NCBI RefSeq assembly: GCF_003790525.1
Contig: NZ_CP033635.1
Origin: Escherichia coli
GTDB lineage: Bacteria; Pseudomonadota; Gammaproteobacteria; Enterobacterales; Enterobacteriaceae
Direction: 5' to 3' (one strand)
Length of the DNA stretch: 64,000 nt
The number at the start of each line of letters is the position of its first letter. The first letter of the stretch is position 1. The notes under the pieces are model-generated. The model did no database searches, was not told the DNA's origin, and was given only the letters and a program-made list of their open reading frames with translations. Made by a program: the position numbers and the translations under genes. Positions 7,146-60,664 of the stretch are shown piece by piece.

Positions 7146-8705
7146 TTACTTGATATCTTTCACGCGCATACCGTTGATCTGTTCATCCGTGATGGTGTTA
7201 CCCGCTTTGAAGTAATCAACCACGGCGTGATAAACGTAATAACCGCCCGTTGTGTTACGCGCTTTCCCTTCGGTAAAGGCGGTAAAACCATCTCCACCAT
7301 CAGCAAGGAAACTCTGAGTAGCAATGTGGTAAATCGTCGCATCTTCAATGGGTTTGCCATTCAGAGTCAGCGTGATTACCCGCTGACCAACCGGCTTACT
7401 GCTGTCGTACTTCATTTCCAGGCCTTTCGATACCTGTAAAACGCCATTACTCAAACTTGCGCCGTGTTCCATCAAACTGCGTAATTGTTTACCCGTGAGA
7501 TCCATCGTCACCAGTTCGTTGGGGAACGGGAAGGTACTGATGACGCCACCCATCGTAATTGCACCCGCCGGGATCTCATTGCGAATCCCGCCAGAGTTGG
7601 TTAACGCCAACTGGGTATTTTTACCCGCCGCTGCCAGCAAAGCGTCTGCCGCCAGGTTCCCGAGAGAAGCTGATTCACCATAGGCACGTTTTAGTTCAAC
7701 CGGCGATTGCGCCACCGTTTGTTGCACGACTTCATCCAGCTTTTTGTTCCAACTATCAATCACCTGTTTCGTTTGCGGATCGGGCTTCCACTCATCGGCG
7801 TAAAGGGTTTTAAGCTCGAAGTTTTTCACCGTAAAAGTGTGCGGCTTCTCTTTGTAGTCGAGAACCAGTTTACCGACATCAATCCCGCCGCTGTCAGTGG
7901 AGAGGATTAACGTATTGCCGACTTTAATCGGTTCCGGCGTACCCACATGTGCATGCCCGGTGATCAAAATATCCAACCCTTTCACCTGACTTGCCGTCTG
8001 AATATCTTTATCCAGTGCGCGACGCACATCCGTGCCTCCCATACTGGACTGGCGGGCCGGAACACCTTCGTGGATCAGGGCGACGGTTAGATCAACCTTG
8101 CCTTTGAGTTCATCGATATAACGTTGTAGCCATTTAATTTCATCACGCGCCTCAATACCCACTCGCGTTGCCGCAGATACCGTATCATTAAAGGCAAATA
8201 CACCGTGCAAACCAATCACGCCAATTTTCACGCCGTCTTTTTCAATGATGGTATAGGGCTTATCCCAGAATGATTTACTGCTGTTCTGATAAAAAACATT
8301 ACCCTGCACAATCGGGAATTTTGCCTGACTCAACTGTAATAACGTATTGTCCCAGCCGTGATCAAATTCATGATTACCTATAGTGACCGCATCGAATGGC
8401 ATGGTATTCATAATATCGATAATCGCCTTGCCTTTAGTCAGGCTGCTGATATACGGTCCGGTAAAATAGTCACCCGCATCAAAAAACCAGGTCGCTTTGT
8501 TTTTAGCTTTTTCTTGTTTAACAAGCGTAGTGATATTTGCCCAGCCGCCAATATCCCGTTTACCGTCAGCAATCCACGGCACTTTATAAGGCTCTACATG
8601 TGCATGGAGGTCGTTGGTATAAATGATGGTGACATCTTTGGCGCAAGCCCAAAACGGCAGTGTTAATGCGATACCCGCAGCAAGCATTTTAATTTTCATA
8701 AACAA
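7146..8705 (-). CDS. Secreted bifunctional metallophosphatase/5'-nucleotidase (UshA/YfkN family) paralog A
   Basis: Signal peptide then [33 protein letters not shown] metallophosphatase motifs and a C-terminal 5'-nucleotidase substrate-binding region. Confidence 0.85.
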
Positions 8706-40764: not shown

Positions 40765-41667
40765 TTATGAAAGCATAGACCGTTTACCCTCCCTGGGTAC
40801 GACGGAACAGGGGTCCTGATGGATAATCACATCCGATCCCGGAAAACGCCGTAAAATAGCCTGCTCTACCTGATCCGCCACCATATGTGCCTGAACCAAA
40901 GGCAGAGAGTCTTCCATTTCCAAATGAATCTGAATAAAGCGGGTCGGCCCTGACTGCCGCGTGCGAAGATCGTGAGCGCCGCTAACACCCGGCCAGGAAG
41001 TCACGATATCAATAATTTCTTGCCGTTCTTCATCAGGCAATGCGCGATCCAGTAATGACTGTACCGCCTCATATCCCATGCGTAACGCGCTATATAAAAT
41101 ATAGATGCCGATTCCCAATGCAAACAGAGCATCGGCGCGATGCCAGCCGTACCAGGACAACCCCAGCGCCAGCAGAATTGCGCCGTTCATCATAACATCA
41201 GACTGGTAATGTAGCATATCAGCCCGCACCGCCTGGCTTTGCGTCCGGCGCACCACCCACCGCTGAAACGAGACAAGGATAATCGTACAAATTAGCGCCA
41301 CAATTGTCACGATAACCCCGACGCCTGGATCTGTCATCGGTGTTGGAGATACCAGATGTTGAATACCCGTCAAAAACAGGAATAGTGCCGAACCGGAGAT
41401 AAACATACTTTGCGCCAGCGCCGCGAGGGACTCAGCTTTACCGTGACCAAACGAGTGATTATCGTCGGCAGGTTGCAGGGAATATCGCACCACCAGTAAA
41501 TTCGTCAACGACGCGCCGATATCCACCAGCGAATCCACCAGCGCGGCGAGAATACTCACCGACCCGGTATACCACCATGCAAAAATTTTAATCAGCAATA
41601 GCAGCGAAGCCATCGCCGTCGCAGCAATCGCCGCCCGACTGACCAGCCGTCCATAAGATTGATTCAT
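40765..41667 (-). CDS. fieF: Cation-diffusion-facilitator Fe/Zn efflux transporter
   Basis: Start trimmed to [42 protein letters not shown]; CDF-family features. Confidence 0.9.
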
Positions 41668-41748
41668 AAATACTCCCGCTATCAACTGACGGTAGTATAA
41701 CGGAAGCAAATCATCTGCAATGCATTAAGCAGCAAGCAAATTGAGGAT

Positions 41749-41891: not shown

Positions 41892-43317
41892 TAATGCCGA
41901 TCAGTTAAGGATCAGTTGACCGATCCAGTGGCTGTGTAAGAATCCGGAAACGCTCACTTGTTTCCGGATTTTTTTATGCACATTGGACAGGCTCTTGATC
42001 TGGTATCCCGTTACGATTCTCTGCGTAACCCACTGACTTCTCTGGGGGATTACCTCGACCCCGAACTCATCTCTCGTTGCCTTGCCGAATCAGGTACTGT
42101 AACGCTACGCAAGCGCCGTCTTCCCCTCGAAATGATGGTCTGGTGTATTGTTGGCATGGCGCTTGAGCGTAAAGAACCTCTTCACCAGATTGTGAATCGC
42201 CTGGACATCATGCTGCCGGGCAATCGCCCCTTCGTTGCCCCCAGTGCCGTTATTCAGGCCCGCCAGCGCCTGGGAAGTGAGGCTGTCCGCCGCGTGTTCA
42301 CGAAAACAGCGCAGCTCTGGCATAACGCCACGCCGCATCCGCACTGGTGCGGCCTGACCCTGCTGGCCATCGATGGTGTGTTCTGGCGCACACCGGATAC
42401 ACCAGAGAACGATGCAGCCTTCCCCCGCCAGACACATGCCGGGAACCCGGCGCTCTACCCGCAGGTCAAAATGGTCTGCCAGATGGAACTGACCAGCCAT
42501 CTGCTGACGGCTGCAGCCTTCGGCACGATGAAGAACAGCGAAAATGAGCTTGCTGAGCAACTTATAGAACAAACCGGCGATAACACTCTGACGTTAATGG
42601 ATAAAGGTTATTACTCACTGGGACTGTTAAATGCCTGGAGCCTGGCGGGAGAACACCGCCACTGGATGATACCTCTCAGAAAGGGAGCGCAATATGAAGA
42701 GATCAGAAAACTGGGTAAAGGCGATCATCTGGTGAAGCTGAAAACCAGCCCGCAGGCACGAAAAAAGTGGCCGGGACTGGGAAATGAAGTGACAGCCCGC
42801 CTGCTGACCGTGACGCGCAAAGGAAAAGTCTGCCATCTGCTGACGTCGATGACGGACGCCATGCGCTTCCCCGGAGGAGAAATGGCGGATCTGTACAGTC
42901 ATCGCTGGGAAATCGAACTGGGATACAGGGAGATAAAACAGACGATGCAACTGAGCAGGCTGACGCTGAGAAGTAAAAAACCGGAGCTTGTGGAGCAAGA
43001 GCTGTGGGGTGTCTTACTGGCTTATAATCTGGTGAGATATCAGATGATTAAAATGGCGGAATATCTGAAAGGTTACTGGCCGAATCAACTGAGTTTCTCA
43101 GAATCATGTGGAATGGTGATGAGAATGCTGATGACATTGCAGGGCGCTTCACCGGGACGTATACCGGAGCTGATGCGCGATCTTGCAAGTATGGGACAAC
43201 TTGTGAAATTACCGACAAGAAGGGAAAGGGCCTTCCCGAGAGTGGTAAAGGAGAGGCCCTGGAAATACCCCACAGCCCCGAAAAAGAGCCAGTCAGTTGC
43301 TTAACTGACTGGCATTA
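41892..43317 (+). mobile_element. Insertion sequence IS4 (1426 bp, apparently intact)
   Basis: Terminal inverted repeats taatgccgatcagttaagg (left) and gcttaactgactggcatta (right, reverse complement taatgccagtcagttaagc); single transposase ORF; 13-bp direct repeats on both sides. Confidence 0.9.
41976..43304 (+). CDS. insG: IS4 transposase
   Basis: 442-aa translation [40 protein letters not shown]... matches IS4 transposase as I recall it. Confidence 0.9.
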
Positions 43318-43330
43318 CTCAACTGAGGGG
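43318..43330. repeat. IS4 target-site duplication, right copy (CTCAACTGAGGGG)
   Basis: Identical to 41879..41891. Confidence 0.8.
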
Positions 43331-45299: not shown

Positions 45300-47747
45300 T
45301 TAACCGTCATGCATCATGCTGGCACGGGCGCGCACACGTTTATCCCGCTCGTATTTTTCGAGCGCATCCTGTAACTGGCGGTCGAGCTGTGTCCCCGGCG
45401 CAGTACCACCCGTCAGGCTGATGTGATATTCGTTTTTACTCTGGTCCACATAAGAGCGGCCAGCCGGTGCCGTGACCGGCTGATAAGCCTGATAGCCTGC
45501 ATAAGAGCTGGTCGCCGGAATATAACCACCGCTGCCATACGTGGCGGCTTGAGTTCTGGCGGCGGTCTGGTCAAGTGTGTCTGACTCTTTGTTGATAACA
45601 CCGAGTTTTTCCAGTACCCAGTCAATACCGCTGCGCAGTTTGTTGAACGCATTAAGCGGCAGCATCAGCGCGTCAGCCAGTGCCTGCCCGAACATGACCC
45701 CCGTGTCACGGCAACTGTTCAGGGAGTCCTGAGTGGCTTTGACCGGGGCAATCAGGTTTTTAAACCACTGCCACGCGGCCTGTAACTTTTCACCCAGCCA
45801 GTCAAACACCGGCTTAAGTGGCGTGAACAGTTCCCCCACCGGCGCAAATGCCACTTTCAGCCCTTCAACCACACCGCCAAAGAATGCGCTGACAGGCTCC
45901 CAGTATTTACGGATAAGCAACGCCCCGGCGACAATTGCGGCCACCACGGCCACAACCGGCCAGCTAATAACCCCGATGGCGGTCATAACAGCACTGCCAA
46001 CCGTCGTGAAGACTGCCCCCATTGCGCCTGCTGCCGCGATGATGGCATTGATGCCGGTGATAACCGGCCAGGCTACGAGGCCAATGGCACCGATGATGCC
46101 AGTCAGCGCCAGCGCGCCACCGGCAATGATGCCGATGGTTGACGCCAGTGATTTGTTTTTCTGGATCCAGCCGTCGAGTTTTAACACATACTTTGTGGTC
46201 GTCTGCGTGAGCTTACGCAGCGCGCCTTCCTGCTGGTCAAACAGGTCAGTCCCCACTGCCTCATAAGCGGACTGAAACTCTTTAAAGTCACCGCCTAGGT
46301 TGTCCTGCATGATATTTACCAGCTCGGCGGTCTTCCCGTCTGAGGATTTAAACGCAGCGGTCAGTTTGTCCAGCTTTCCGGTTGAGGCGGCAGTCATCAG
46401 CACGGCGGCGGCTGAGCTGGCCTCCTCCCCGAAAATAGTTTTCATGTATTCAGCCTGCTGGGCAGTACCGAGCCGGTTTTTCTCAAAACTGGCCTGCATT
46501 TCTTTCAGAATGGTAAATATTGGCCGGGTGTTTCCCTTGCTGTCTGAGGTTTTCACTCCAAGCTCTTTGAGTGCATCCCATGCTTTTCCCGTCGGTGCCT
46601 GCAGGCGGCTTAACACGGCACGGCTTCCCGTCCCCGCCATTGAGCCTGTGATTTTTGCATCATGCAGCGCCCCGACCATTGCGGCGGTTTCTTCAATGCT
46701 GACACCGGCATTTTTTGCCACAGGTGCGGCATAGGTCAGCGCATCGCTCATGCCGTCAAAATCGGCGGCGGTTTTGTTCATCGTCATGGAGAGAACATCC
46801 CCGATATGAGCGACCTTATCGTTTGAAAGCTGAAAGGCGGATTTCATCCCCATCAACAGGGCGGCGTTTTCTTCCATCGTGCGGCGGTTCGCCAGCGCCA
46901 TATTCAGCGTGACCGGCGTTGCCGCCTGAATGGCATCAACATCCCCACCCGCTTTCGCGATGATTATCTGTGCACCGGCCGCATCATCCGCCGAGGCGGC
47001 GGTATTGTCGCCGAGCTGGCGCGCCTGTTTGCGTAGTGCGGTCATTTCGGCGGAGTCTTTTGCCACTCCGAGCACGGCCAGCAATTCTGAGTTTTTCTGC
47101 GCAAACTCATAACCTGGCATCAGCAACTTAACTCCGGCCATCGTTCCCGCCGCCGCAATCCCCACACCGGCAGCGCCCACTGAGGCCATATTTCCGGCCA
47201 GTTCCTTGCCTGCCTGATAACGCTGTTTTACTGCGTTAAGTTTTGCCTGTTGCGCACTGACACGCGCCAGCGCGTCACGCTGACGGTTAAGCTGTGCGGT
47301 GGTTTCACTGATACGGTTTTTCAGTCCCTGCTCATCATGTGCAAGATTGCGGGTATTAATTCCCACAACGGCCAGTTCCCGCTGCTGGCGTTTAACGGAA
47401 TCCGTCAGGCGGTTATATTTCGCCTGTAAGTCCTCCGCCGCACGCTTCGCGGATTCCAGCACTTTCGCCTGAGCACGTGTCGGACGTTCGGTGTTTTTAA
47501 ACTGTGTGGCAAGGGCTTCGGCCTCCTGCCGTGCCTTTTCAAGTGCATGACCAGTCACGGCGAGCTGTGCACTGGTCTTGCGAAATCCCTCAATACGGGA
47601 TGCCTGACCGTTCAGCTCACGCAGTGATTTTTGTGTTTCCCGGATATCCCCCGACAGCGATTTGCTCGCTGTGCGGATGGATTTAAACGGGCGGGATGCC
47701 TGGTCAACAGCCCTGAGCAATACCTGTAATTTTACATTGTTACTCAT
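45300..47747 (-). CDS. T: Tail tape measure protein (gpT)
   Basis: 815 aa, coiled-coil N-half, Gly/Ala-rich hydrophobic segments; downstream of E/E'. Confidence 0.9.
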   Translation of the reverse strand: MSNNVKLQVLLRAVDQASRPFKSIRTASKSLSGDIRETQKSLRELNGQASRIEGFRKTSAQLAVTGHALEKARQEAEALATQFKNTERPTRAQAKVLESAKRAAEDLQAKYNRLTDSVKRQQRELAVVGINTRNLAHDEQGLKNRISETTAQLNRQRDALARVSAQQAKLNAVKQRYQAGKELAGNMASVGAAGVGIAAAGTMAGVKLLMPGYEFAQKNSELLAVLGVAKDSAEMTALRKQARQLGDNTAASADDAAGAQIIIAKAGGDVDAIQAATPVTLNMALANRRTMEENAALLMGMKSAFQLSNDKVAHIGDVLSMTMNKTAADFDGMSDALTYAAPVAKNAGVSIEETAAMVGALHDAKITGSMAGTGSRAVLSRLQAPTGKAWDALKELGVKTSDSKGNTRPIFTILKEMQASFEKNRLGTAQQAEYMKTIFGEEASSAAAVLMTAASTGKLDKLTAAFKSSDGKTAELVNIMQDNLGGDFKEFQSAYEAVGTDLFDQQEGALRKLTQTTTKYVLKLDGWIQKNKSLASTIGIIAGGALALTGIIGAIGLVAWPVITGINAIIAAAGAMGAVFTTVGSAVMTAIGVISWPVVAVVAAIVAGALLIRKYWEPVSAFFGGVVEGLKVAFAPVGELFTPLKPVFDWLGEKLQAAWQWFKNLIAPVKATQDSLNSCRDTGVMFGQALADALMLPLNAFNKLRSGIDWVLEKLGVINKESDTLDQTAARTQAATYGSGGYIPATSSYAGYQAYQPVTAPAGRSYVDQSKNEYHISLTGGTAPGTQLDRQLQDALEKYERDKRVRARASMMHDG

Positions 47748-50072: not shown

Positions 50073-50264
50073 CTGATTTGTACTCACTCATTTTCCGACT
50101 GACAATTTACATAGCCAAAACGCTATCAAATCTGACAGTCTGCTTTGAGCGAGGAGCAGAGGTTAGTTTTAGTTAACCAAAATGATAAAAAGCAGTAGAA
50201 AAATCCGCTCATTACGTTATGGTTATAAGCCGCACATAATCATCCGAGCCAAATCCTCTTGATT

Positions 50265-51164
50265 TCAAAGAATTAGCACTTGCTCTTCACTAGAAACTAT
50301 GGTTCTGACTTCACGCTCAAATATTGGATCCATTATCATTTTTCTATTTGTTGGAATAGTAAATTTACCGAGTACCATGACAATGCTACTCAACGGAAAT
50401 AATTTTGGAGTAACATTTCCTAATTGAATCGTAGGATATATATTAAAGCCCCCTTTTATCCTCATTGGCGAACCTTCAATGAAGTGTCGATAATTAAATT
50501 TCGCCATAGGGATTCTCGCCACATGCACTTTCATAATTACAGCAACCTGAGCTATTTTTACTTTCTGGAGGTAAGTTGACAATCGTTCTAACTGCGTTGT
50601 TTCATAGAAAAAATCAGACCACGTTACAGTACTTGTTCCAGTAACAATTTTTATGCTGTTTCTCTTGTTGGGGTGAGCTTTTCCATATTCATAGATCTCC
50701 CGTAAGCTATCCATGTTCTTCACATAAGGGGCTTTCCGACCTCTCTTGACATAAACGCGGTCTGTAGTATCAGAAGGTGGATTTGCCTGCATAGCTGCAG
50801 CTTTTCTGCTTAATTTAGAGATATCATCTTCATCGAGTATATGTATACGGAATATATTATTACCTGTGGCAAGCGCACGGCTGATATCATGACTGGAATC
50901 ACTTGCATAAATTGTATTCAATCCTGAAGTTCCATACTGGCATAATTTGTCATGCGTGAAATTTTTTTCCAGTCTAAAGAAGGCGGGGATATGCAAGGTT
51001 TTATTAAAACTCCGACGAATATGGCTTTTGACATACACCAAATGAGCAGAGCAATTTGGGTCAGGACATTTGAGTGGATAGGGATTAACACTATAATTAA
51101 AAGTATTTACATTTACTAAAATCTGATTGTTATCAATAGCCTGAGTTATACGAATACCACTCAT
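50265..51164 (-). CDS. AT-rich cargo (moron) protein at the P2 Z/fun position between G and FI; candidate phage-exclusion protein
   Basis: 299-aa ORF with markedly lower GC than flanking tail genes; occupies the slot where P2 carries the T5-exclusion gene Z/fun; no family recognised. Confidence 0.6.
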   Translation of the reverse strand: MSGIRITQAIDNNQILVNVNTFNYSVNPYPLKCPDPNCSAHLVYVKSHIRRSFNKTLHIPAFFRLEKNFTHDKLCQYGTSGLNTIYASDSSHDISRALATGNNIFRIHILDEDDISKLSRKAAAMQANPPSDTTDRVYVKRGRKAPYVKNMDSLREIYEYGKAHPNKRNSIKIVTGTSTVTWSDFFYETTQLERLSTYLQKVKIAQVAVIMKVHVARIPMAKFNYRHFIEGSPMRIKGGFNIYPTIQLGNVTPKLFPLSSIVMVLGKFTIPTNRKMIMDPIFEREVRTIVSSEEQVLIL

Positions 51165-51379
51165 TACTCCTCCATAAAGATAGGCGCAAGCATTTAGTAA
51201 TAAACCATTAACATGCCGAGATCATACCCGATCATTGAAATGTAAACACTCCCCTAAGACGGCTGCTGGCATAATATTTTATGACATCAGCAATGCCCAC
51301 CTCTGGCACAGAGTGGACTGTCAGATTAGGCTTTACTCTGTGCCATAGATATGTAAGCCCACACTAGAGCTCATACAAC

Positions 51380-51907
51380 TTATTGCGGCATTTCCGGCCA
51401 TTCAGGATTTGCAGGATCCACACGACTGACCAGAACACTATAGCGTTCCCATGCCTCCAGTCGACTACGCTCCTCATCTGTTGCCATATTCAGCCTGACC
51501 GCGCGCTCCAGCGGCAAAATCACGGATTCAGCTTCGGAAAGCAAAGCTGCCTTATGTAATTCCGCCAGTTTCTGCTGTTCGTCTGCCGTATAAATCCGCT
51601 TAATCACGGCACCATCCTTAAACATCCATTTACCTGAGTCGTCAGCACGTCGGTTGGAGGTAATATCAGGAACCTCAACAACGCTAAAACCTTCAGGATT
51701 AAGCGTTGAAGCATCTCTGGTGATAGCGACAATAATATTATTTTCATCGTAAACAATCTTTATTGTGTCTGGCTGAAAGTTCTTCACTTCCTCATACCAG
51801 TTTTTTCCGTCCTCAGAGTAAAGCCAGATAACTCCGTGTTTCTTTGTTAACTCATACTGTTCCAGTGTTTTAGCGTTACCCGCTTTTATGTTCTTTAAGT
51901 GCATCAT
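51380..51907 (-). CDS. G: Tail fiber assembly protein (gpG)
   Basis: 175 aa immediately downstream of the tail fiber gene. Confidence 0.85.
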
Positions 51908-51908
51908 A

Positions 51909-53930
51909 TTAAACGCTCGCTACATTATACCAGGTGCCATTTATATACTTTTGAACGGGTCTGTAATAAACGCCCGCTATATTATCGGCAGAGTTGGACC
52001 CTGTATCCTGAACATTAATACCAGACAATACATGACCTGACGGGCACTGGAAATTCCATGTTTGCCAGTTGTTCACTCCATAATATTGCTGTGACCCAAG
52101 TCGAACATCTTTCACATATCTGGAATCAAAATTGCCATAGTTGCCAGGAATAACTTGCGAGCCACAAAGCCAGTTACCGTTATTATCCATGTACGCCTGA
52201 CCATCGGTGCCATTGGCTGTCCTTGAGTTATTAATCATGTAGATGCCAAATTGCTTGTTCCCCAGTCCACCTATCATGAACTTGCGGTCAGCGTGATTCT
52301 GGCGAAGCAACGCCTGAGCGCTATCAGTGTTAACTATATTTTTCCCAAAGATAGCGTTGTTATCGCGCATCTGAATCCACATACCATTACTGCTGTTAAT
52401 AGCAAAACGGTCTGAAAGCGTCTCCCCTGAAACATTAAGGCCACGCCCCATCGAAACAGCGCCAGTAGCGTTATTAATCCATAATGGCCTTAATCCGTTA
52501 TAAGTCCCCATGTTGTCACCGGAGTTTGTCAACATGAAGTATGTATTTGAACCATCATTACGAATAAAGAATCCGTAATTACCATAAGCAATACGTAGGC
52601 CGTTTGCTGATTTTGATATGACTTCGCCATTTACAATGGCATTGACAAGAACATACAAAGCATCCCATTTAAGATTCATCAGGTCTTTTGTTGTAGTACT
52701 CTGGCGGCTTCTCCATTTGAAATATTCATTGCCGTTATCCCCCGTTTCAAACCACATGAATGAATCAGTGTCACCATCGGCATCATTTTTAAATCCAATC
52801 TTCGCCCAGTCAGTATTTCGAATCCAGGCAAGGATTGAGTCGTTTTCAAAAGTAAGTCCACCGGACAAGGTATCGCCATTTTTTTGCACGGCGTTCCCGG
52901 CTCGGTTTACCGTTTCCTGTAAACCGAGATATTCGATAACGGCGGCAACGGTCGATTTAGCCAGAATATCCCGCCCGACTTTTGTCAGGGTTGCCAAGCT
53001 GGCAACATCATTCCCAATAAAATACGGAAACCTGTCTGCCGCAGTAGCAAGCCCCGCCAGTGCCGTCAGGGTGGCATCTTTCGGTTGCTTACCCGCAAGC
53101 GCATTAGTCATGGTGGTAGCAAAATTCGGGTCATTGCCCAGCGCCGCCGCCAGCTCGTTCAGCGTATTCAGTGCGTCAGGCGACGAGTCTACAAGGGCGG
53201 CAATCGCGGCCATAACGAAAGCCGTGTTTGCGATCTGAGTATTATTCGTTCCCTGTCGCGCAGTTGGCGTCGTTGGCGTTCCGGTCAGTGCAGGGCTGTT
53301 TAATGGCGCTTTCTTGTTCGTTTCATCCATTACCGTCTTAACGGCTTTCGGCGTTGCAGCCAGTGTTTCAGACGTGCTGTTGGTCGCACTGCTTAACTGA
53401 GTAAAACCTTTTGCGGTCAGCGAGGCGTCAGGGTGACGTCGTGACTGTTCATGTTCTGCAATTTTGTCATCAACGTAATCCTGCGTCGCCATCACCGTTG
53501 TGGTGTCGATGGTCAGATCCACTGAGGCTACACTGCTGACGATAATGACCATGCGGCAGGTCTGCGAACGTCCTGAGCCTTCGGCAAGGGCTGGCTTATA
53601 ACTTTCGGCCATGTTCGCCACGGCAATTAACGTTCCCGCATCATCGTACAGGCCAAGCTCACGCATCCAGAAACCGCCCACCTCCGGCGGAATAACCAGC
53701 TCTGCGATAATATAATTACTGTTTCGTTTGTCCTGGCTGATTTTGTTCAGCGCATGTCGCCAGACTTCGTGGATAAGCCCGGTCTGTCCGGCATCCGGGA
53801 CAGGCAATTTACCACCGCCATCCCCGACGGCCATCGTGGTAATGTTGACCTTCCGCCCTCCCGGCGCGGTTGCCGCTGCCAGCTTTGCTGCACCGGCAGT
53901 GGTGATAACGGTTTTGAATTTTGTGCTCAT
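51909..53930 (-). CDS. H: Tail fiber protein (gpH)
   Basis: 673 aa; N-terminus [41 protein letters not shown]... Confidence 0.9.
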
Positions 53931-55724: not shown

Positions 55725-56356
55725 AGAGGTCCCCCGGTTGTGCCGCCGCTGTCGCCGGGGTGTTTATGGGTATGCAGTACCTTACCGTTTGATGAGAGCT
55801 CACCGCCGGTGTGTTCAATGTTGCCGCGCATCGTCCCGCCCTTCTGCACTTCCAGCGTGCCGGTAATCAGCCTGTTGGTGCAGACCACCTCCGGTGTGTC
55901 CAGGGTGATGCGGGTTGATGCTTTCACCATGACCACCGGCACCGTGGCAGTAACAGAATCAGAAGCCGTCACGCTGGCCGTTTTAACTCCGCTTACCGTG
56001 AGCGCGCTGGTTTCAGGTTCATACTCAATCACCGCCCCGTCAGGGAAACGGATATGCAGGGCATCCGCCGACGCAGACGGCGCGGGGTTATCGCCGGAAT
56101 AAATCCCCGGCAGAACGAACGCCGTGTCGAGTTCACCACCCACGGCCAGAATCAGCACCTGTTCCCCCACGGAAGGTGCCCACCATGTGCGCGAACGCCC
56201 GGCGCGATGGGTCAGCCACTGAAGCCAGTCGGTGCACATGCCGCCGGTCTGCACACGGCAGCGACCGGCATTAAGGTCGGTTTCGACGATAATGCCGGTG
56301 CGGATCATGTTGCGCAGTGCGCGCGCGAGTTCCTGAATATTTGCGAGAGTGTTCAT
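55721..56356 (-). CDS. V: Baseplate spike/assembly protein (gpV)
   Basis: Start trimmed to MNTLANIQELARALRNMIRTGIIVETDLNAGRCRVQTGG (CAT at 56354-56356). Confidence 0.85.
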   Translation of the reverse strand: MNTLANIQELARALRNMIRTGIIVETDLNAGRCRVQTGGMCTDWLQWLTHRAGRSRTWWAPSVGEQVLILAVGGELDTAFVLPGIYSGDNPAPSASADALHIRFPDGAVIEYEPETSALTVSGVKTASVTASDSVTATVPVVMVKASTRITLDTPEVVCTNRLITGTLEVQKGGTMRGNIEHTGGELSSNGKVLHTHKHPGDSGGTTGGPL

Positions 56357-56439
56357 GCGTGTGAGATTGCACAATATATAAAAGTTATGCTATCTGGATT
56401 CATTTGTAGAACGACCATACAACATTCGAGGAGAGCGTA

Positions 56440-57225
56440 ATGTTCAGTGATAATGTGACTAATGCGTGGTGGTTTATCTCTTTGTATCTATTTTTATTAA
56501 TAGCATTAACATTTGTTACCTTTGGTAAAAGTAATCTTATGAGGTTTATTGCACATCATTTCAATCTTGAGTATTCAGACAGAAAGTTAAAAATGCTCGA
56601 CAAAAAATGGCGCGACATTCAACTATTTAAAATAATTAACGGAATCAATGTATCAGGCATCGAAGATGTGAGAATGATACAGCAGGGGCTGATTGATGGA
56701 AAACTAAAAACATCGTATTTTTTCCTTACTCGCTTCTGGGGTGACATAACAAAACCACCACACATAATTAAAACAACAATTGTAATTCTGGCCAGTATTA
56801 TTTATATTCTCTTCGCATGTTATATACACAATGAACAATCCGCTATAGTAAGGGATGCCATAGGTATACCATATAAAAATATGATGTACTATGTTTATAG
56901 TGACAAAGTTCTTTTATCCTTCAAAAATAAAACGGTTGAATTTAATAAAACTTATAGCCTTGCCGATTGCAAGAGTCTGCAAAACGTATTTATAAAAGAC
57001 ACACTTCCCGAGATCGCCTGCAATAAGCTCTTACAGCTAAACAAGGAGGACTCCGAATGGTTAAGTCAGGAGATTAAAGATAATAACAGCCACAGAAAAA
57101 CATTATTAATAATATCCCTAACCTATTTCATTTCAGGTCTGCTTATATTCCTGTCATATACAAAATTCCTTTACGCCAATAAGAAGGTTTTAGAATACAA
57201 AGCATCAAATAAAAACCACTCATAA
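56440..57225 (+). CDS. AT-rich cargo (moron) membrane protein at the P2 orf30 position between S and V, opposite strand to the late operon
   Basis: 261 aa, about three predicted TM helices, very AT-rich, divergent from V; no family recognised. Confidence 0.6.
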   Translation: MFSDNVTNAWWFISLYLFLLIALTFVTFGKSNLMRFIAHHFNLEYSDRKLKMLDKKWRDIQLFKIINGINVSGIEDVRMIQQGLIDGKLKTSYFFLTRFWGDITKPPHIIKTTIVILASIIYILFACYIHNEQSAIVRDAIGIPYKNMMYYVYSDKVLLSFKNKTVEFNKTYSLADCKSLQNVFIKDTLPEIACNKLLQLNKEDSEWLSQEIKDNNSHRKTLLIISLTYFISGLLIFLSYTKFLYANKKVLEYKASNKNHS

Positions 57226-57236
57226 ACCTCTAAATA

Positions 57237-57261
57237 TTGAGCGACCAGCACGGCCGCTCAA
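57237..57261. terminator. Hairpin between the S/V cargo gene and S
   Basis: ttgagcg accagcacggc cgctcaa inverted repeat; weak flanking T-run. Confidence 0.35.
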
Positions 57262-57296
57262 TGCTTAATTGCGCATCAGCCTCTGCCTTGATAAAA

Positions 57297-57749
57297 CTAA
57301 CGCTCAAGGTGAGCCAGGATAATCTCTTCAATCATCTGCACATCCTCACCGGTAAAGCCGAGCAGAGGACGCGCCGGATAATCAATTTTCTTACCGTCTT
57401 TCCGGTTTTCTTCCGACAGACCGAACTGATGCACACTGGCGATTTTCGGTGACTTCCCGCCGTAAAACTCCATTGATGCCTGTTCCGGGCTGGCGCGGAT
57501 ATGCAAAAAACGACTGGTGATAAGTTTCGCAAACATTTTTCGCTTAACACGACCGGTCTTTTTTCTGGCGCTCTGCTGCTGGCGTGGCGCGTAGGGTGTG
57601 CCGTCCGGAGCTTTCTGTGCCATCACCCGACGCTGCTGACTCTGCCGCAGGCGTTTCGCCAGTTCGGCACTCAGTCGCCGACGCCCTGACGGTGACAGCG
57701 ATTCAATCAGTCCGGTCAGCCGGTCTTCAAAACGCTTAAACTCATTCAT
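57297..57749 (-). CDS. S: Tail completion protein (gpS)
   Basis: 150 aa; position after R. Confidence 0.85.
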   Translation of the reverse strand: MNEFKRFEDRLTGLIESLSPSGRRRLSAELAKRLRQSQQRRVMAQKAPDGTPYAPRQQQSARKKTGRVKRKMFAKLITSRFLHIRASPEQASMEFYGGKSPKIASVHQFGLSEENRKDGKKIDYPARPLLGFTGEDVQMIEEIILAHLER

Positions 57750-58209
57750 CCCACTTGCTCACCAGTTCGCCATTGATATACAGCTCCATCGGGCGGGTGA
57801 CCGGCTCCGGCGGCGGAGGTTCCGGGATATTCTTCACATGCAGCGCGCCGTCCACCTCACTGACCAGCGTGCGCTCGGTCAGCATCAGGCTGATACTGAT
57901 ATCAAAGCTGCTGTCATTGTTGATGTCCGCATAAAACGTGAAGCCCTTTTTCTGGCCTGCGTCGGTGGTCATGATGTCGGGCTGATTTTCCCGCAGCCAC
58001 GCCAGCACCGGCACGATGAGCAGGTCAAAATCACCGGTAAAGTCGGTCACAATGACATTGAGCGTGTAACGCTTTTCAAATGACAGCGACCTCGCCAGTG
58101 TGGAGGCAATACTCCCGTTATCCACGAATATCCGCAGCATCTCGGGACTGGTTTTCAGCACCGTGACAGCATCAGTCAGCGCCCTGCGCAGGCTGTCGGG
58201 TTTGAGCAT
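57742..58209 (-). CDS. R: Tail completion protein (gpR)
   Basis: 155 aa; position after the lysis genes. Confidence 0.85.
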   Translation of the reverse strand: MLKPDSLRRALTDAVTVLKTSPEMLRIFVDNGSIASTLARSLSFEKRYTLNVIVTDFTGDFDLLIVPVLAWLRENQPDIMTTDAGQKKGFTFYADINNDSSFDISISLMLTERTLVSEVDGALHVKNIPEPPPPEPVTRPMELYINGELVSKWDE

Positions 58210-58462
58210 CGTTTTCGTCCTGACAGTGTTTAATCATTTTTACCTGGCTGGCACAGCGTGCCAGCGCGTTCTCAAGCTGCCGGATATCAGCACTTAAATC
58301 GCCGTTCGTCTCCGGGTCACTGCCCGGCATCGGGCAAAGGCTCACTTTCGGGCAGGCGTTGTGGACAATCACTGGCGTCGGCGCAGGCCGGGCGCTGGTG
58401 CAACCGGCGCACAGCATCAGGCAGGTCAGCGCCGTACCAGCGGCGAAAATCTTCGTTTTCAT
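58172..58462 (-). CDS. lysC: LysC, Rz1-like outer-membrane lipoprotein spanin embedded in the lysB region
   Basis: MKTKIFAAGTALTCLMLCAGCTSARP lipobox-like signal followed by a Pro-rich region; alternative frame overlapping lysB and the start of R. Confidence 0.6.
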   Translation of the reverse strand: MKTKIFAAGTALTCLMLCAGCTSARPAPTPVIVHNACPKVSLCPMPGSDPETNGDLSADIRQLENALARCASQVKMIKHCQDENDAQTRQPAQGAD

Positions 58463-58742
58463 TAAGTAACCTCGTGATGGTTTTCTCGCGCTGTGCTTCA
58501 CGCTTCGCGGCGTTCTCCAGCTCCTGACGCAGTGCCACCTGCGCCAGCTCGTTTTTGTCTGCCCTGGTAAGGGCAACATGAAGCTGATTTTTCAGCATGG
58601 TGATGGTCGTCTGCTGTTCACTGGCGACGTTGTTCGCCCTGTCCAGCGAGGCGCGCAGGCTGGCATTTTTGTGTTTCACCAGAAACAGACCGGCCACCGC
58701 CAGTGATAACAACACGACCAGCACAATCATCAGCTTTGACAT
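58317..58742 (-). CDS. lysB: LysB, Rz-like inner-membrane spanin
   Basis: 141 aa; N-terminal TM then coiled-coil region. Confidence 0.8.
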   Translation of the reverse strand: MSKLMIVLVVLLSLAVAGLFLVKHKNASLRASLDRANNVASEQQTTITMLKNQLHVALTRADKNELAQVALRQELENAAKREAQREKTITRLLNENEDFRRWYGADLPDAVRRLHQRPACADASDCPQRLPESEPLPDAGQ

Positions 58743-59155
58743 GGTTCCCGCCCCTCAAAACGCTGACAGCAGGCCGTACGTATCAGCCGGAAGAACACCG
58801 ATGCCACGAGATAAATCAGCGCGGTAAAAATCCACCCGGCAGCGACCAGCGAGATAAACGTCGCCACCATCACTACCAGAGCCACTGACCGCCTGCGCCA
58901 CGGCACCGGCTGCAAAAACAGCGCCGTGACAATCTTCACGGCCAGCGATTCCGGCGGCAGCTCCCGCCCGTAGCGTTCCAGTACATACTCAGTGGCATAC
59001 ACGCCGACACCACCGGCAACCACACAGATAACCGTCGCCAGAATCGCCCAGGCGGCGACAAAACTGACGGCCACGCTCTGCGGGTAAATCAGGGACAGTG
59101 CCAGCATCAGCGCCAGCGACACGTTCAGCATCAGTGAAAGGGATAATTTCTTCAT
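58730..59155 (-). CDS. lysA: LysA lysis-timing membrane protein
   Basis: 141-aa multi-TM protein between K and lysB. Confidence 0.8.
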   Translation of the reverse strand: MKKLSLSLMLNVSLALMLALSLIYPQSVAVSFVAAWAILATVICVVAGGVGVYATEYVLERYGRELPPESLAVKIVTALFLQPVPWRRRSVALVVMVATFISLVAAGWIFTALIYLVASVFFRLIRTACCQRFEGREPCQS

Positions 59156-59169
59156 GGTGTTTACTCCGT

Positions 59170-59667
59170 TTAAGCCAGTACGCCGCCAGCGGTACGCCAG
59201 ACGGTGAACAGTTTTTCCAGTGAATGCTCACGCTGACCGTAACCGGCACCCGGCAGGGACGCCCAGATATTGCGACAGCGTGAAATGGCGCGCTCAATGC
59301 GTCCCGCCCGGATGTCATCCAGTGCACCGCGTTCGCGGATCAACTGAATGGCGAGTCTGTCCTGTGACAACGGACTGAAATCAGGCAGGGCAAGCTGTTT
59401 GCGGTAGTGCGGCCAGAACAGGTAAAGCTGCTGATAGCGACCGGAGGCCGTGGATTTTTCACCGCGACGGTTAAACACCTTCGCCGGTCGGCCATGCGCG
59501 AACGGGTGGTCACTGTAGTCGGTGAAAATTTCCGGCTTCCCGTCCAGTCCGGTGACTATCACGTCATAGCCCCGGTTTTTCGTCAGCGGATGATTCGCCG
59601 TCCCTTCGGACACGGCCAGCATGTCGAGAAAGGCGGCGATATTCTGGTGCGTGTTAATTACCGGCAT
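59170..59667 (-). CDS. K: Endolysin (gpK)
   Basis: 165-aa translation MPVINTHQNIAAFLDMLAVSEGTANHPLTKNRGYDVIVTG... (lysozyme-like). Confidence 0.9.
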   Translation of the reverse strand: MPVINTHQNIAAFLDMLAVSEGTANHPLTKNRGYDVIVTGLDGKPEIFTDYSDHPFAHGRPAKVFNRRGEKSTASGRYQQLYLFWPHYRKQLALPDFSPLSQDRLAIQLIRERGALDDIRAGRIERAISRCRNIWASLPGAGYGQREHSLEKLFTVWRTAGGVLA

Positions 59668-59948
59668 TACGGTTTCCCCCTGCCCTTAAAGCGGCGCTGA
59701 ATGGCAATCTCAATCACCTGATAACCGGCGATACCCAGCATGGAGCCGATGCCGCAAACCGCAGGCAGTGACAGGTCAGGAAACTGCACCAGAACAACAC
59801 CGGCAACCATCGAGACAAAACCACCGAGCAACATGCGCCCGATAAACAGACGCGGGGTGATGGGTTCACCACCGGTAAGCACCTTGCCGACAACAATCAG
59901 CACCCCAATCATGAAAAGCGACAGGACGCTTTTTTCTTCTGCTGTCAT
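59667..59948 (-). CDS. Y: Holin (gpY)
   Basis: 93-aa small TM protein directly upstream of the endolysin. Confidence 0.85.
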   Translation of the reverse strand: MTAEEKSVLSLFMIGVLIVVGKVLTGGEPITPRLFIGRMLLGGFVSMVAGVVLVQFPDLSLPAVCGIGSMLGIAGYQVIEIAIQRRFKGRGKP

Positions 59949-59951
59949 GCG

Positions 59952-60155
59952 TTACTCCCACAGATTGACAGTTTCAGCCACGGGCGCGGTCTGAACGTCG
60001 GGCAGTTCGACGGCGGTGCCATGTGGCAGCACCGCACCCAGTTCAGCCAGTCCCGGATTTGCGACGAGCACGGTCTCAACCACGCCCTCAGTGCGCCCGT
60101 AATACCGGACACAAATGGCGTCGAGCGTGTCGCCCTGTAGCGCAAAGGTCTTCAT
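59952..60155 (-). CDS. X: Tail protein gpX (LysM-like)
   Basis: Start trimmed to MKTFALQGDTLDAICVRYYGRTEGVVETVLVANPGL. Confidence 0.85.
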   Translation of the reverse strand: MKTFALQGDTLDAICVRYYGRTEGVVETVLVANPGLAELGAVLPHGTAVELPDVQTAPVAETVNLWE

Positions 60156-60664
60156 CAGATTTGACTCACGATGCAGCGCGGCTTGTCCTGGATACGCGCC
60201 ACCGCCCAGCGCATATCCCGCCACAGTTCATCAATGGTGCTGTCAATGCTGTCAGCCTTCTTGTCACCTTTCGCACTGGCATCCACGCCGCGATAACGCT
60301 CATAAAGCGACGCGGTCGCCATCGCACACACGGCGCGCTCGTAGTAAAAAACTTTGATGCTTTCACCGTCGATGTCGTCCGCCGGGACGTCCGCCAGACG
60401 CGTAAAACCGGCGGCAATTTTCTGTTCGCGGTACTCGTACAGCTCCGCATTCGTCTCCGCCATGCCTGACTTGATGGCCTCACGCAGACGGGCGGGGGCG
60501 ACGGTCTGCTCAAGGCGCATACGTTCCCGGACGCGCTTCGGGTCGATATCGGGAAAAAAGAACGTGTTTTTAATCACCGGCTCGTCGCCTGCCGGTTGCG
60601 GGATGACCACCGTACCCTCACCGGACACGGGAGCCTCCTTTCGCGGAATAATCAGCGTCATCAT
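60155..60664 (-). CDS. L: Head completion/stabilisation protein (gpL)
   Basis: Start trimmed to MMTLIIPRKEAPVSGEG...; position between M and X. Confidence 0.85.
   Translation of the reverse strand: MMTLIIPRKEAPVSGEGTVVIPQPAGDEPVIKNTFFFPDIDPKRVRERMRLEQTVAPARLREAIKSGMAETNAELYEYREQKIAAGFTRLADVPADDIDGESIKVFYYERAVCAMATASLYERYRGVDASAKGDKKADSIDSTIDELWRDMRWAVARIQDKPRCIVSQI

Follow-up and report, generated by a model that had tools for sequence, protein, structure and literature searches.

The overlapped lysB/lysC spanin genes of a P2 prophage in Escherichia coli

Spanin systems fall into three classes, embedded, overlapped and separated, and phage P2 is the prototype of the overlapped class and an experimentally tested example of it (PMC6139136). 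In that class the o-spanin gene begins out of frame within the i-spanin gene and continues past the stop of the latter; no spanin family mixes embedded with overlapped members (PMC6139136). P2 lysC has its start in the lysB +1 frame and its stop inside gene R, an arrangement that has been contrasted with that of lambda Rz1 (PMC3091744). That paper cites Markov et al. 2004, who defined lysC as the Rz1 homologue.

The lambda counterpart is differently arranged. Rz1 (46186-46368) lies wholly inside Rz (45966-46427), whereas lysC exceeds lysB and enters R. The two systems share an inner-membrane type II protein partnered with an outer-membrane lipoprotein, the same mode of action, and a lipoprotein gene that is in the +1 frame of its partner and is the final gene of the lysis cassette. 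The P2 genes are said to have complemented lambda Rz/Rz1 nulls, in the 2004 work of Markov and colleagues.

Identity and gene layout of the locus

The window analyzed here, a 64,000-nt stretch of E. coli DNA, contains a partial P2 prophage. Positions 43318-64000 align to P2 from its position 24281 down to 2664, and the prophage adjoins E. coli chromosomal genes, those for a cation-efflux (CDF-family) transporter and an IS4-family transposase. Positions 57700-59200 are 99.9% identical to the record 'Peduovirus P2' NC_070904 and 96–97% identical to dozens of P2-like phages. The segment from lysB to lysC is 100% identical to NC_070904 and shares 553 of its 571 nt (96.8% identity) with NC_001895, the reference P2 genome, leaving 18 differences. 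Among 5426 complete E. coli genomes, 1608 carry the same 701 nt.

All of the features lie on the minus strand, which the initial annotation had not stated. The lysis cassette runs along this one strand, in P2 gene order, as the Y holin gene (59948..59667; PF04550 holin, E=7e-42), the K endolysin gene (59667..59170), lysA (59155..58730), lysB and lysC, with the spanin pair last; K and lysA were placed by gene order and open reading frame. The gene lysB (58742..58317, ATG to TGA) encodes a 141-aa i-spanin, the inner-membrane subunit, and lysC (58462..58172, ATG to TGA) encodes the o-spanin, an outer-membrane lipoprotein subunit with a 96-aa precursor and a 76-aa mature form. The N-terminus of LysC reads MKTKIFAAGTALTCLMLCAGC (also given as MKTKIFAAGTALTCLMLCAGCTSARPAP). 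The tail completion gene R (58209..57742; PF06891 P2_Phage_GpR, E=9.8e-45) is a neighbour outside the spanin. The span 58172-58742 singled out by the initial annotation runs exactly from the lysB start to the lysC stop.

The lysC ATG lies 280 nt into lysB, and lysC occupies the +1 frame of lysB; R is in turn in the +1 frame relative to lysC. The two genes of the pair share 146 nt (58317..58462), a dual-coding zone that specifies the LysB C-terminus in one frame and the LysC signal peptide and Pro-rich linker in the other. At its 3' end lysC overlaps the start of R by 38 nt (58172..58209). A further 107 nt, from the lysB stop to the R start, are coded by lysC only. In a mechanical listing of open reading frames the lysC frame is open upstream as far as 58579. 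The geometry agrees with the original description of a lysC that begins out of frame inside lysB and runs into the start of R.

We found that the assignment to P2 LysB and LysC, for which the initial annotation had called for a comparison with P2 LysC, is borne out both by NC_001895 and by family models. In NC_001895 lysB is annotated at 7922-8347 and lysC at 8202-8492, with the same bounds, frames and overlaps as here, and the lysC start that had been proposed (MKTKIF...) is the curated start in that record and in SpaninDB, which includes a P2 entry. These are the same genes as those of phage P2, differing only by allelic substitutions: 4 of 141 residues in LysB and 5 of 96 in LysC, where K2R, A11V, R25P, H34P and E51Q distinguish the protein here from the reference and leave invariant columns untouched. 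Two equivalog models gave strong matches, LysC scoring 127.4 bits (cut-off 27) on NCBIfam NF038368, 'P2_Rz1, Rz1-like lysis system protein LysC', and LysB scoring 172.5 bits (cut-off 92.75) on TIGR03495 phage_LysB. LysC also matched Pfam PF23793 LysC (E=3.7e-17; 62.4 bits, cut-off 27) and LysB matched phrog_89, 'Rz-like spanin' (E=8.8e-61); the PHROG spanin families concur with NCBIfam and Pfam.

The lysB/lysC pair is overlapped and not embedded: 145 of the 291 nt of lysC, half of the gene, are downstream of the lysB stop. P2 is the textbook case of the overlapped class. The wording 'Rz/Rz1-type embedded', with lysC 'nested' in lysB, does not hold for this locus. SpaninDB labels the P2 system 'ovl', and the PGAP note on lysC reads 'substantially overlapping although not fully embedded'. 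Nor could we find sequence similarity to the lambda proteins. Single-pair BLASTP gave no significant similarity between LysC and Rz1 (E=0.093) or between LysB and Rz (E=0.35), and a Pfam search at E<=0.01 gave no lambda-type Rz/Rz1 family for either one, LysC matching only PF23793 and LysB only a DUF below threshold. As judged from these comparisons, LysB and LysC are functional analogues of Rz and Rz1, with no detectable homology.

Conservation and constraint of the overlapping frames

We collected 13 Peduoviridae loci from nine genera by LysB similarity alone, using tblastn against a phage collection, which makes the choice of relatives independent of lysC. They come from Peduovirus, Eganvirus (186, PSP3 and EtG), Firavirus, Graikaemvirus, Tigrvirus, Arsenicumvirus, Felsduovirus, Gegevirus and Kayeltresvirus, together with an unclassified Klebsiella phage. 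A LysC homologue is encoded in the lysB +1 frame in 13 of 13, and R is in the lysC +1 frame in each. Among them lysC starts 140–164 nt before the lysB stop, passes that stop by 112–157 nt, and ends 8–62 nt inside R. The initial annotation had named a nested frame that was not conserved in related P2-like phages as the outcome that would count against its reading; instead the +1 frame, the lipobox Cys and the layout were all retained in 13 of 13 Peduoviridae.

Named examples of the same +1-frame overlapped layout are Orf27/Orf28 of phage 186, orf11/12 of PSP3, gp32/gp31 of the Burkholderia phage KL3, and the pairs in RE-2010 (Felsduovirus) and in the Shewanella phage M16-3. In these homologues too the lipobox Cys is present, along with four conserved Cys in the periplasmic part, and lysC stops inside the R homologue; the overlap lengths vary, and LysC protein identity to the other Peduoviridae homologues is 39–74%. 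Of the two proteins, LysC is the more conserved one in 10 of the 11 divergent relatives; in phage 186, for instance, its identity is 72% versus 62% for LysB, and in the Shewanella phage 42% versus 28%. The LysC columns that are invariant across the 13 relatives are M1, G9, L15, C21, C37, V40, C43, N53, A66, C70, C80 and Q81.

For the substitution analysis the window was compared with 186, PSP3 or EtG. In the lysC-only zone (35 codons; DNA identity 69–70%), pN was 0.18 and pS 0.71–0.77 in the lysC frame, while pN/pS was about 2 in the other two frames. In the lysB/lysC overlap (DNA identity 78–80%), dN/dS was 0.33–0.45 in the lysB frame and 0.40–0.57 in the lysC frame, against 3–5 in the third frame. 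DNA identity in the lysB-only zone was 60–62%. The dual-coded overlap is the most conserved DNA segment in comparison with the 186 group, which is the signature expected of two coding constraints acting at once. These patterns show that the lysC frame is under selection, with purifying selection acting in both frames of the overlap.

At closer range, IMG/VR and GenBank supplied 69 distinct haplotypes for comparison, taken from LysB relatives at 96–100% identity. The lysC start, Cys21 and the lysC stop were intact in 69 of 69. The lysB stop was lost in five of them; this does not turn the layout into an embedded one, as LysB is lengthened by only 6–15 aa. In this shallow sample, 14 changes within the overlap altered LysC but not LysB, against 7 of the opposite kind, so the LysC signal peptide and linker are only loosely constrained. 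The changes that were non-silent in lysC fall in these two parts of the protein, which tolerate conservative replacements.

The P2 lysB/lysC genes are real, conserved and ordinary, and are already known from the literature and databases. With all three forward frames in use within ~300 nt, and dual-coded DNA more conserved than either flank, lysB/lysC/R would serve as a clean positive control for methods that detect overlapping genes.

Signals in LysC and proposed action of the spanin

Translation of lysC has its own apparent initiation signals. A Shine-Dalgarno sequence GAGGT (58469..58473, minus strand) places GAGG 7 nt 5' of the ATG, with ...CACGAGGTTACTTA-ATG as the upstream context, and SpaninDB marks the same Shine-Dalgarno for P2 lysC. 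GAGG or a near-variant (AAGG, GGAG) precedes lysC in most of the 13 relatives.

The signal peptide comprises residues 1-20, MKTKIFAAGTALTCLMLCAG|C, encoded with the Cys21 codon (58402..58400) at 58400..58462; it has an n-region, an h-region and the lipobox Cys, in the form C-A-G|C. We scanned for such signals with a relaxed lipobox definition (K/R in the n-region, an uncharged hydrophobic h-region, [GAS] at -1 and Cys at residues 15-30). Over the six frames of the window this gave five candidates including lysC, where Markov-simulated windows average 1.1, and the odds of a chance lipoprotein-signal match inside the 146-nt overlap are estimated at about 1 in 1000. The lipoprotein signal described by the initial annotation was thereby recovered in the relaxed scan but not by stricter definitions: the LysC lipobox fails both the strict consensus [LVI][ASTVI][GAS]C and a PROSITE-style pattern, with the Cys at -3 as the sole offender. 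SpaninDB records LipoP cleavage at 20 and 17 for P2 LysC, along with 'No hit by Prosite', and several relatives have the canonical L-S-G-C in the lipobox column instead of C-A-G-C. Because the aligned Cys is invariant, relatives have LSGC and SpaninDB reports the same miss, we do not count the PROSITE-style failure against lipidation. The residue following Cys21 is Thr. Under the +2 sorting rule Thr at this position is compatible with outer-membrane sorting, and with Thr there, not Asp, the precursor would be sorted to the outer membrane.

LysC had also been described as Pro-rich. This fits the first 30 mature residues, which contain 7 of the 8 Pro, but not the 76-residue mature protein overall, at 10.5% Pro; mature lambda Rz1, of ~40 residues, has 10 Pro (25%). 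AlphaFold2, run on the 13-sequence LysC alignment, gave a mean pLDDT of 69.5 and predicted a signal helix at residues 7-23, then a Pro-rich linker (24-55) that is disordered, then a helix spanning 56-89, over which pLDDT is 80–90. This predicted 34-residue C-terminal helix and four invariant periplasmic Cys set LysC apart from lambda Rz1. The four, Cys37, Cys43, Cys70 and Cys80, are invariant in the 13 relatives and available for intermolecular disulfides. LysB has cysteines at 120 and 126. Its only hydrophobic segment is at residues 4-22 (mean KD 3.12 in a 19-residue window), the remainder being polar and charged; LysB has one N-terminal transmembrane segment followed by a charged domain, periplasmic in the predicted N-in/C-out topology.

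We consider it almost certain that lysB and lysC are the two-component spanin genes of a P2 prophage, in overlapped arrangement. By this account the pair would be transcribed within the late O operon, downstream of the holin (Y), endolysin (K) and lysA genes. LysB would be anchored in the inner membrane by its single N-terminal helix, with a helical periplasmic domain pointing outward. LysC, translated from its own GAGG and ATG in the +1 frame, would be exported as a precursor and lipidated at Cys21; after its cleavage by signal peptidase II, Lol would deliver it to the outer membrane, from which it would extend the Pro-rich linker and the long C-terminal helix. The periplasmic domains of LysB and LysC would then bind to form a complex that spans the periplasm and may be disulfide-linked. 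Once holin Y and endolysin K have removed the peptidoglycan, disruption of the outer membrane by this complex, probably through fusion with the inner one, would release the progeny. The function as a spanin is drawn from published work on P2 and lambda, and the membrane topology, the lipidation of Cys21, the disulfide-linked complex and the fusion step are proposed by analogy with lambda.

Other readings of the locus fare poorly by comparison. The view of lysB/lysC as a lambda-like embedded pair draws on the fact that lysC does begin in the +1 frame of lysB, as Rz1 does in Rz, and on the analogous function; yet with just 146 of the 291 nt of lysC within lysB the geometry refutes it, P2 has been placed in the distinct overlapped class (PMC6139136), and significant Rz/Rz1 sequence similarity was lacking in our comparisons, leaving it highly improbable. 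A non-coding lysC, open by chance in GC-rich DNA, we regard as next to impossible. Long open reading frames in alternative frames are common in the region, and those of at least 100 codons are frequent enough in this GC-rich DNA that length is uninformative; we dropped it as evidence of coding for that reason. A chance frame, however, would have to account for a frame, start and lipobox Cys kept in 13/13 distant relatives and 69/69 haplotypes, for pN far below pS in the lysC frame downstream of lysB, for matches to curated family models, and for a lipoprotein signal of a kind rare by chance. A further proposal, that LysB and LysC act mainly as regulators of lysis timing and not as machinery for outer-membrane disruption, has its source in older annotation: NC_001895 carries the notes 'nonessential; affects timing of lysis' and 'regulation of lysis', and several records still say 'lysis regulatory proteins'. 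We hold it to be very unlikely. The lambda Rz/Rz1 spanins appear non-essential under laboratory conditions, so that the seeming non-essentiality of the P2 genes in the laboratory is behaviour already familiar from lambda. The topology signals fit a pair bridging the inner and outer membranes, and in later publications the P2 pair is classed as a two-component spanin that has been tested by experiment (PMC6139136; PMC3091744).

The lysC start and its annotation

The initial annotation held that single-frame annotation misses lysC. This is true of part of the record: PGAP and many phage entries shorten or omit the gene, whereas the curated reference P2, NC_001895, carries the full 96-aa lysC. 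In RefSeq E. coli, PGAP starts lysC at Met16, giving 81 aa with just 5 residues before the lipobox Cys. The entries for NC_070904, PhiR44_1 and EtG start it at Met45 (52 aa), PhiBP82.2 is similarly clipped, and lysC is missing from the annotations of vB_YenM_42.18, vB_YenM_31.17, RE-2010 and ST512-KPC3phi13.6. The 62-residue profile phrog_952 matches only LysC residues 36-96, and that family looks as though it was built from shortened lysC calls. Kongari et al. (PMC6139136) reported the same kinds of problem more widely: among 528 systems, 196 o-spanins were unannotated and 64 had a wrong start. The main value of the present analysis lies here, in setting the full lysC against its shortened or omitted calls.

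These shorter calls, 81 aa in RefSeq E. coli and 52 aa in several phage records, are, with the phrog_952 match, what could be said for a true lysC start that is internal, at Met16 (58417, 81 aa) or Met45 (58330, 52 aa), in which case the lysB overlap would be non-coding in the lysC frame. Such a product would have no usable signal peptide, since Met16 leaves 5 residues before the Cys and Met45 none; the 96-aa form is the only one with both a signal peptide and a lipobox. GAGG precedes Met1. The first 20 residues can be aligned over nine genera, M1, G9, L15 and C21 being invariant, and pN is below pS in the lysC frame throughout the overlap. The NCBIfam model NF038368 aligns from LysC residue 4, and both curated P2 and SpaninDB use Met1. 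An internal true start is on these grounds scarcely credible, and we retain Met1 as the lysC start.

A weaker proposal is that Met16 or Met45 is used in vivo and, separately, that a hairpin at 58265..58247 attenuates transcription into the tail genes R and S. With the codons and the hairpin themselves as its basis, this seems quite improbable. Were the internal starts used, the product would be a signal-less, non-lipidated LysC fragment keeping the conserved C-terminal helix, which could modulate spanin assembly or the timing of lysis; a dual start of this kind would be comparable to lambda S107/S105. The hairpin itself (58247..58265, minus strand) is a 19-nt element with an 8-bp stem inside lysC. 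A terminator scan did not pick it up, and an Rfam scan of 56300-60300 returned nothing relevant, only a sub-threshold miRNA match. The stem folds, with an unremarkable z-score of -0.57 and no U-run 3' of it. The attenuator role is a putative and unverified annotation, carried by the equivalent positions of NC_001895 (8399-8417) as 'putative transcription attenuator; O operon'.

Start of lysC and product name of lysA in public records

The annotated start of lysC, the spanin gene on the minus strand that overlaps lysB, was found to differ between public records. The curated P2 record begins at Met1 (58462), giving a 96-aa product; PGAP RefSeq annotation of E. coli begins at Met16 (58417), giving 81 aa, and many phage records begin at Met45 (58330), leaving 52 aa. 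The differing calls include those at L095:1884–2129 and L001:2371–2529, and lysC annotation was absent altogether from four fetched relatives. The match of PHROG 952, a profile of 62 positions, is limited to residues 36–96 of LysC, and this family looks to have been derived from truncated lysC calls.

Upstream of lysB, the lysA gene (58730–59155, minus strand) presents a naming problem. RefSeq phage records and PHROG 162 both name its product 'endolysin', and the NCBIfam name is only 'DNZ54_00345 family'. Hydrophobic segments dominate the LysA sequence and no glycosidase match was obtained; according to PMC3091744, LysA has four transmembrane domains and is an antiholin. The 'endolysin' name is probably an error that spread between records.

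Loss of the lysB stop codon and a hairpin within lysC

In 5 of 69 close haplotypes (L009, L046, L049, L066 and L078) the lysB stop codon, equivalent to 58317–58319, was mutated from TGA to CGA or TGG, lengthening LysB to 147 or 156 aa; lysC was intact in all five. Further along lysC, a hairpin with an 8-bp stem (58247–58265, minus strand) lies within the ALARCAS codons, and the equivalent position of reference P2 (NC_001895) is labeled 'putative transcription attenuator; O operon'. The hairpin folds, yet is unexceptional (z = −0.57); it has no U-run downstream and was not detected by the terminator scan.

Prophage edge and variable segments

An IS4-family transposase gene with Nterm_IS4 and DDE_Tnp_1 domains (41958–43304, plus strand) is flanked by a chromosomal cation-efflux gene with Cation_efflux and ZT_dimer domains (40765–41709, minus strand) and by the ogr/att prophage end. 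Alignment to P2 record NC_070904 begins at 41746, whereas that to reference P2 begins only at 43318. Part of the H/G tail-fibre region (51953–52638 and 51304–51953) was either unaligned to reference P2 or only 88% identical to it, which suggests a putative exchanged host-range segment.

Between S and V lies a visibly AT-rich homolog of Orf30 (261 aa; 56440–57225), on the plus strand, opposite to the late genes. Pfam, NCBIfam and PADLOC gave nothing above threshold for it, its sole match being PHROG 2407, of unknown function.

The fun(Z) locus of P2 is replaced (50168–51304), with ∼1.1 kb at this position compared to ∼2.1 kb in reference P2. An ORF here (50265–51164, minus strand) encodes a 299-aa protein with no match in Pfam or PADLOC. 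Since fun(Z) is a known variable site among P2-like prophages, this ORF may be a lysogenic-conversion or defence gene.
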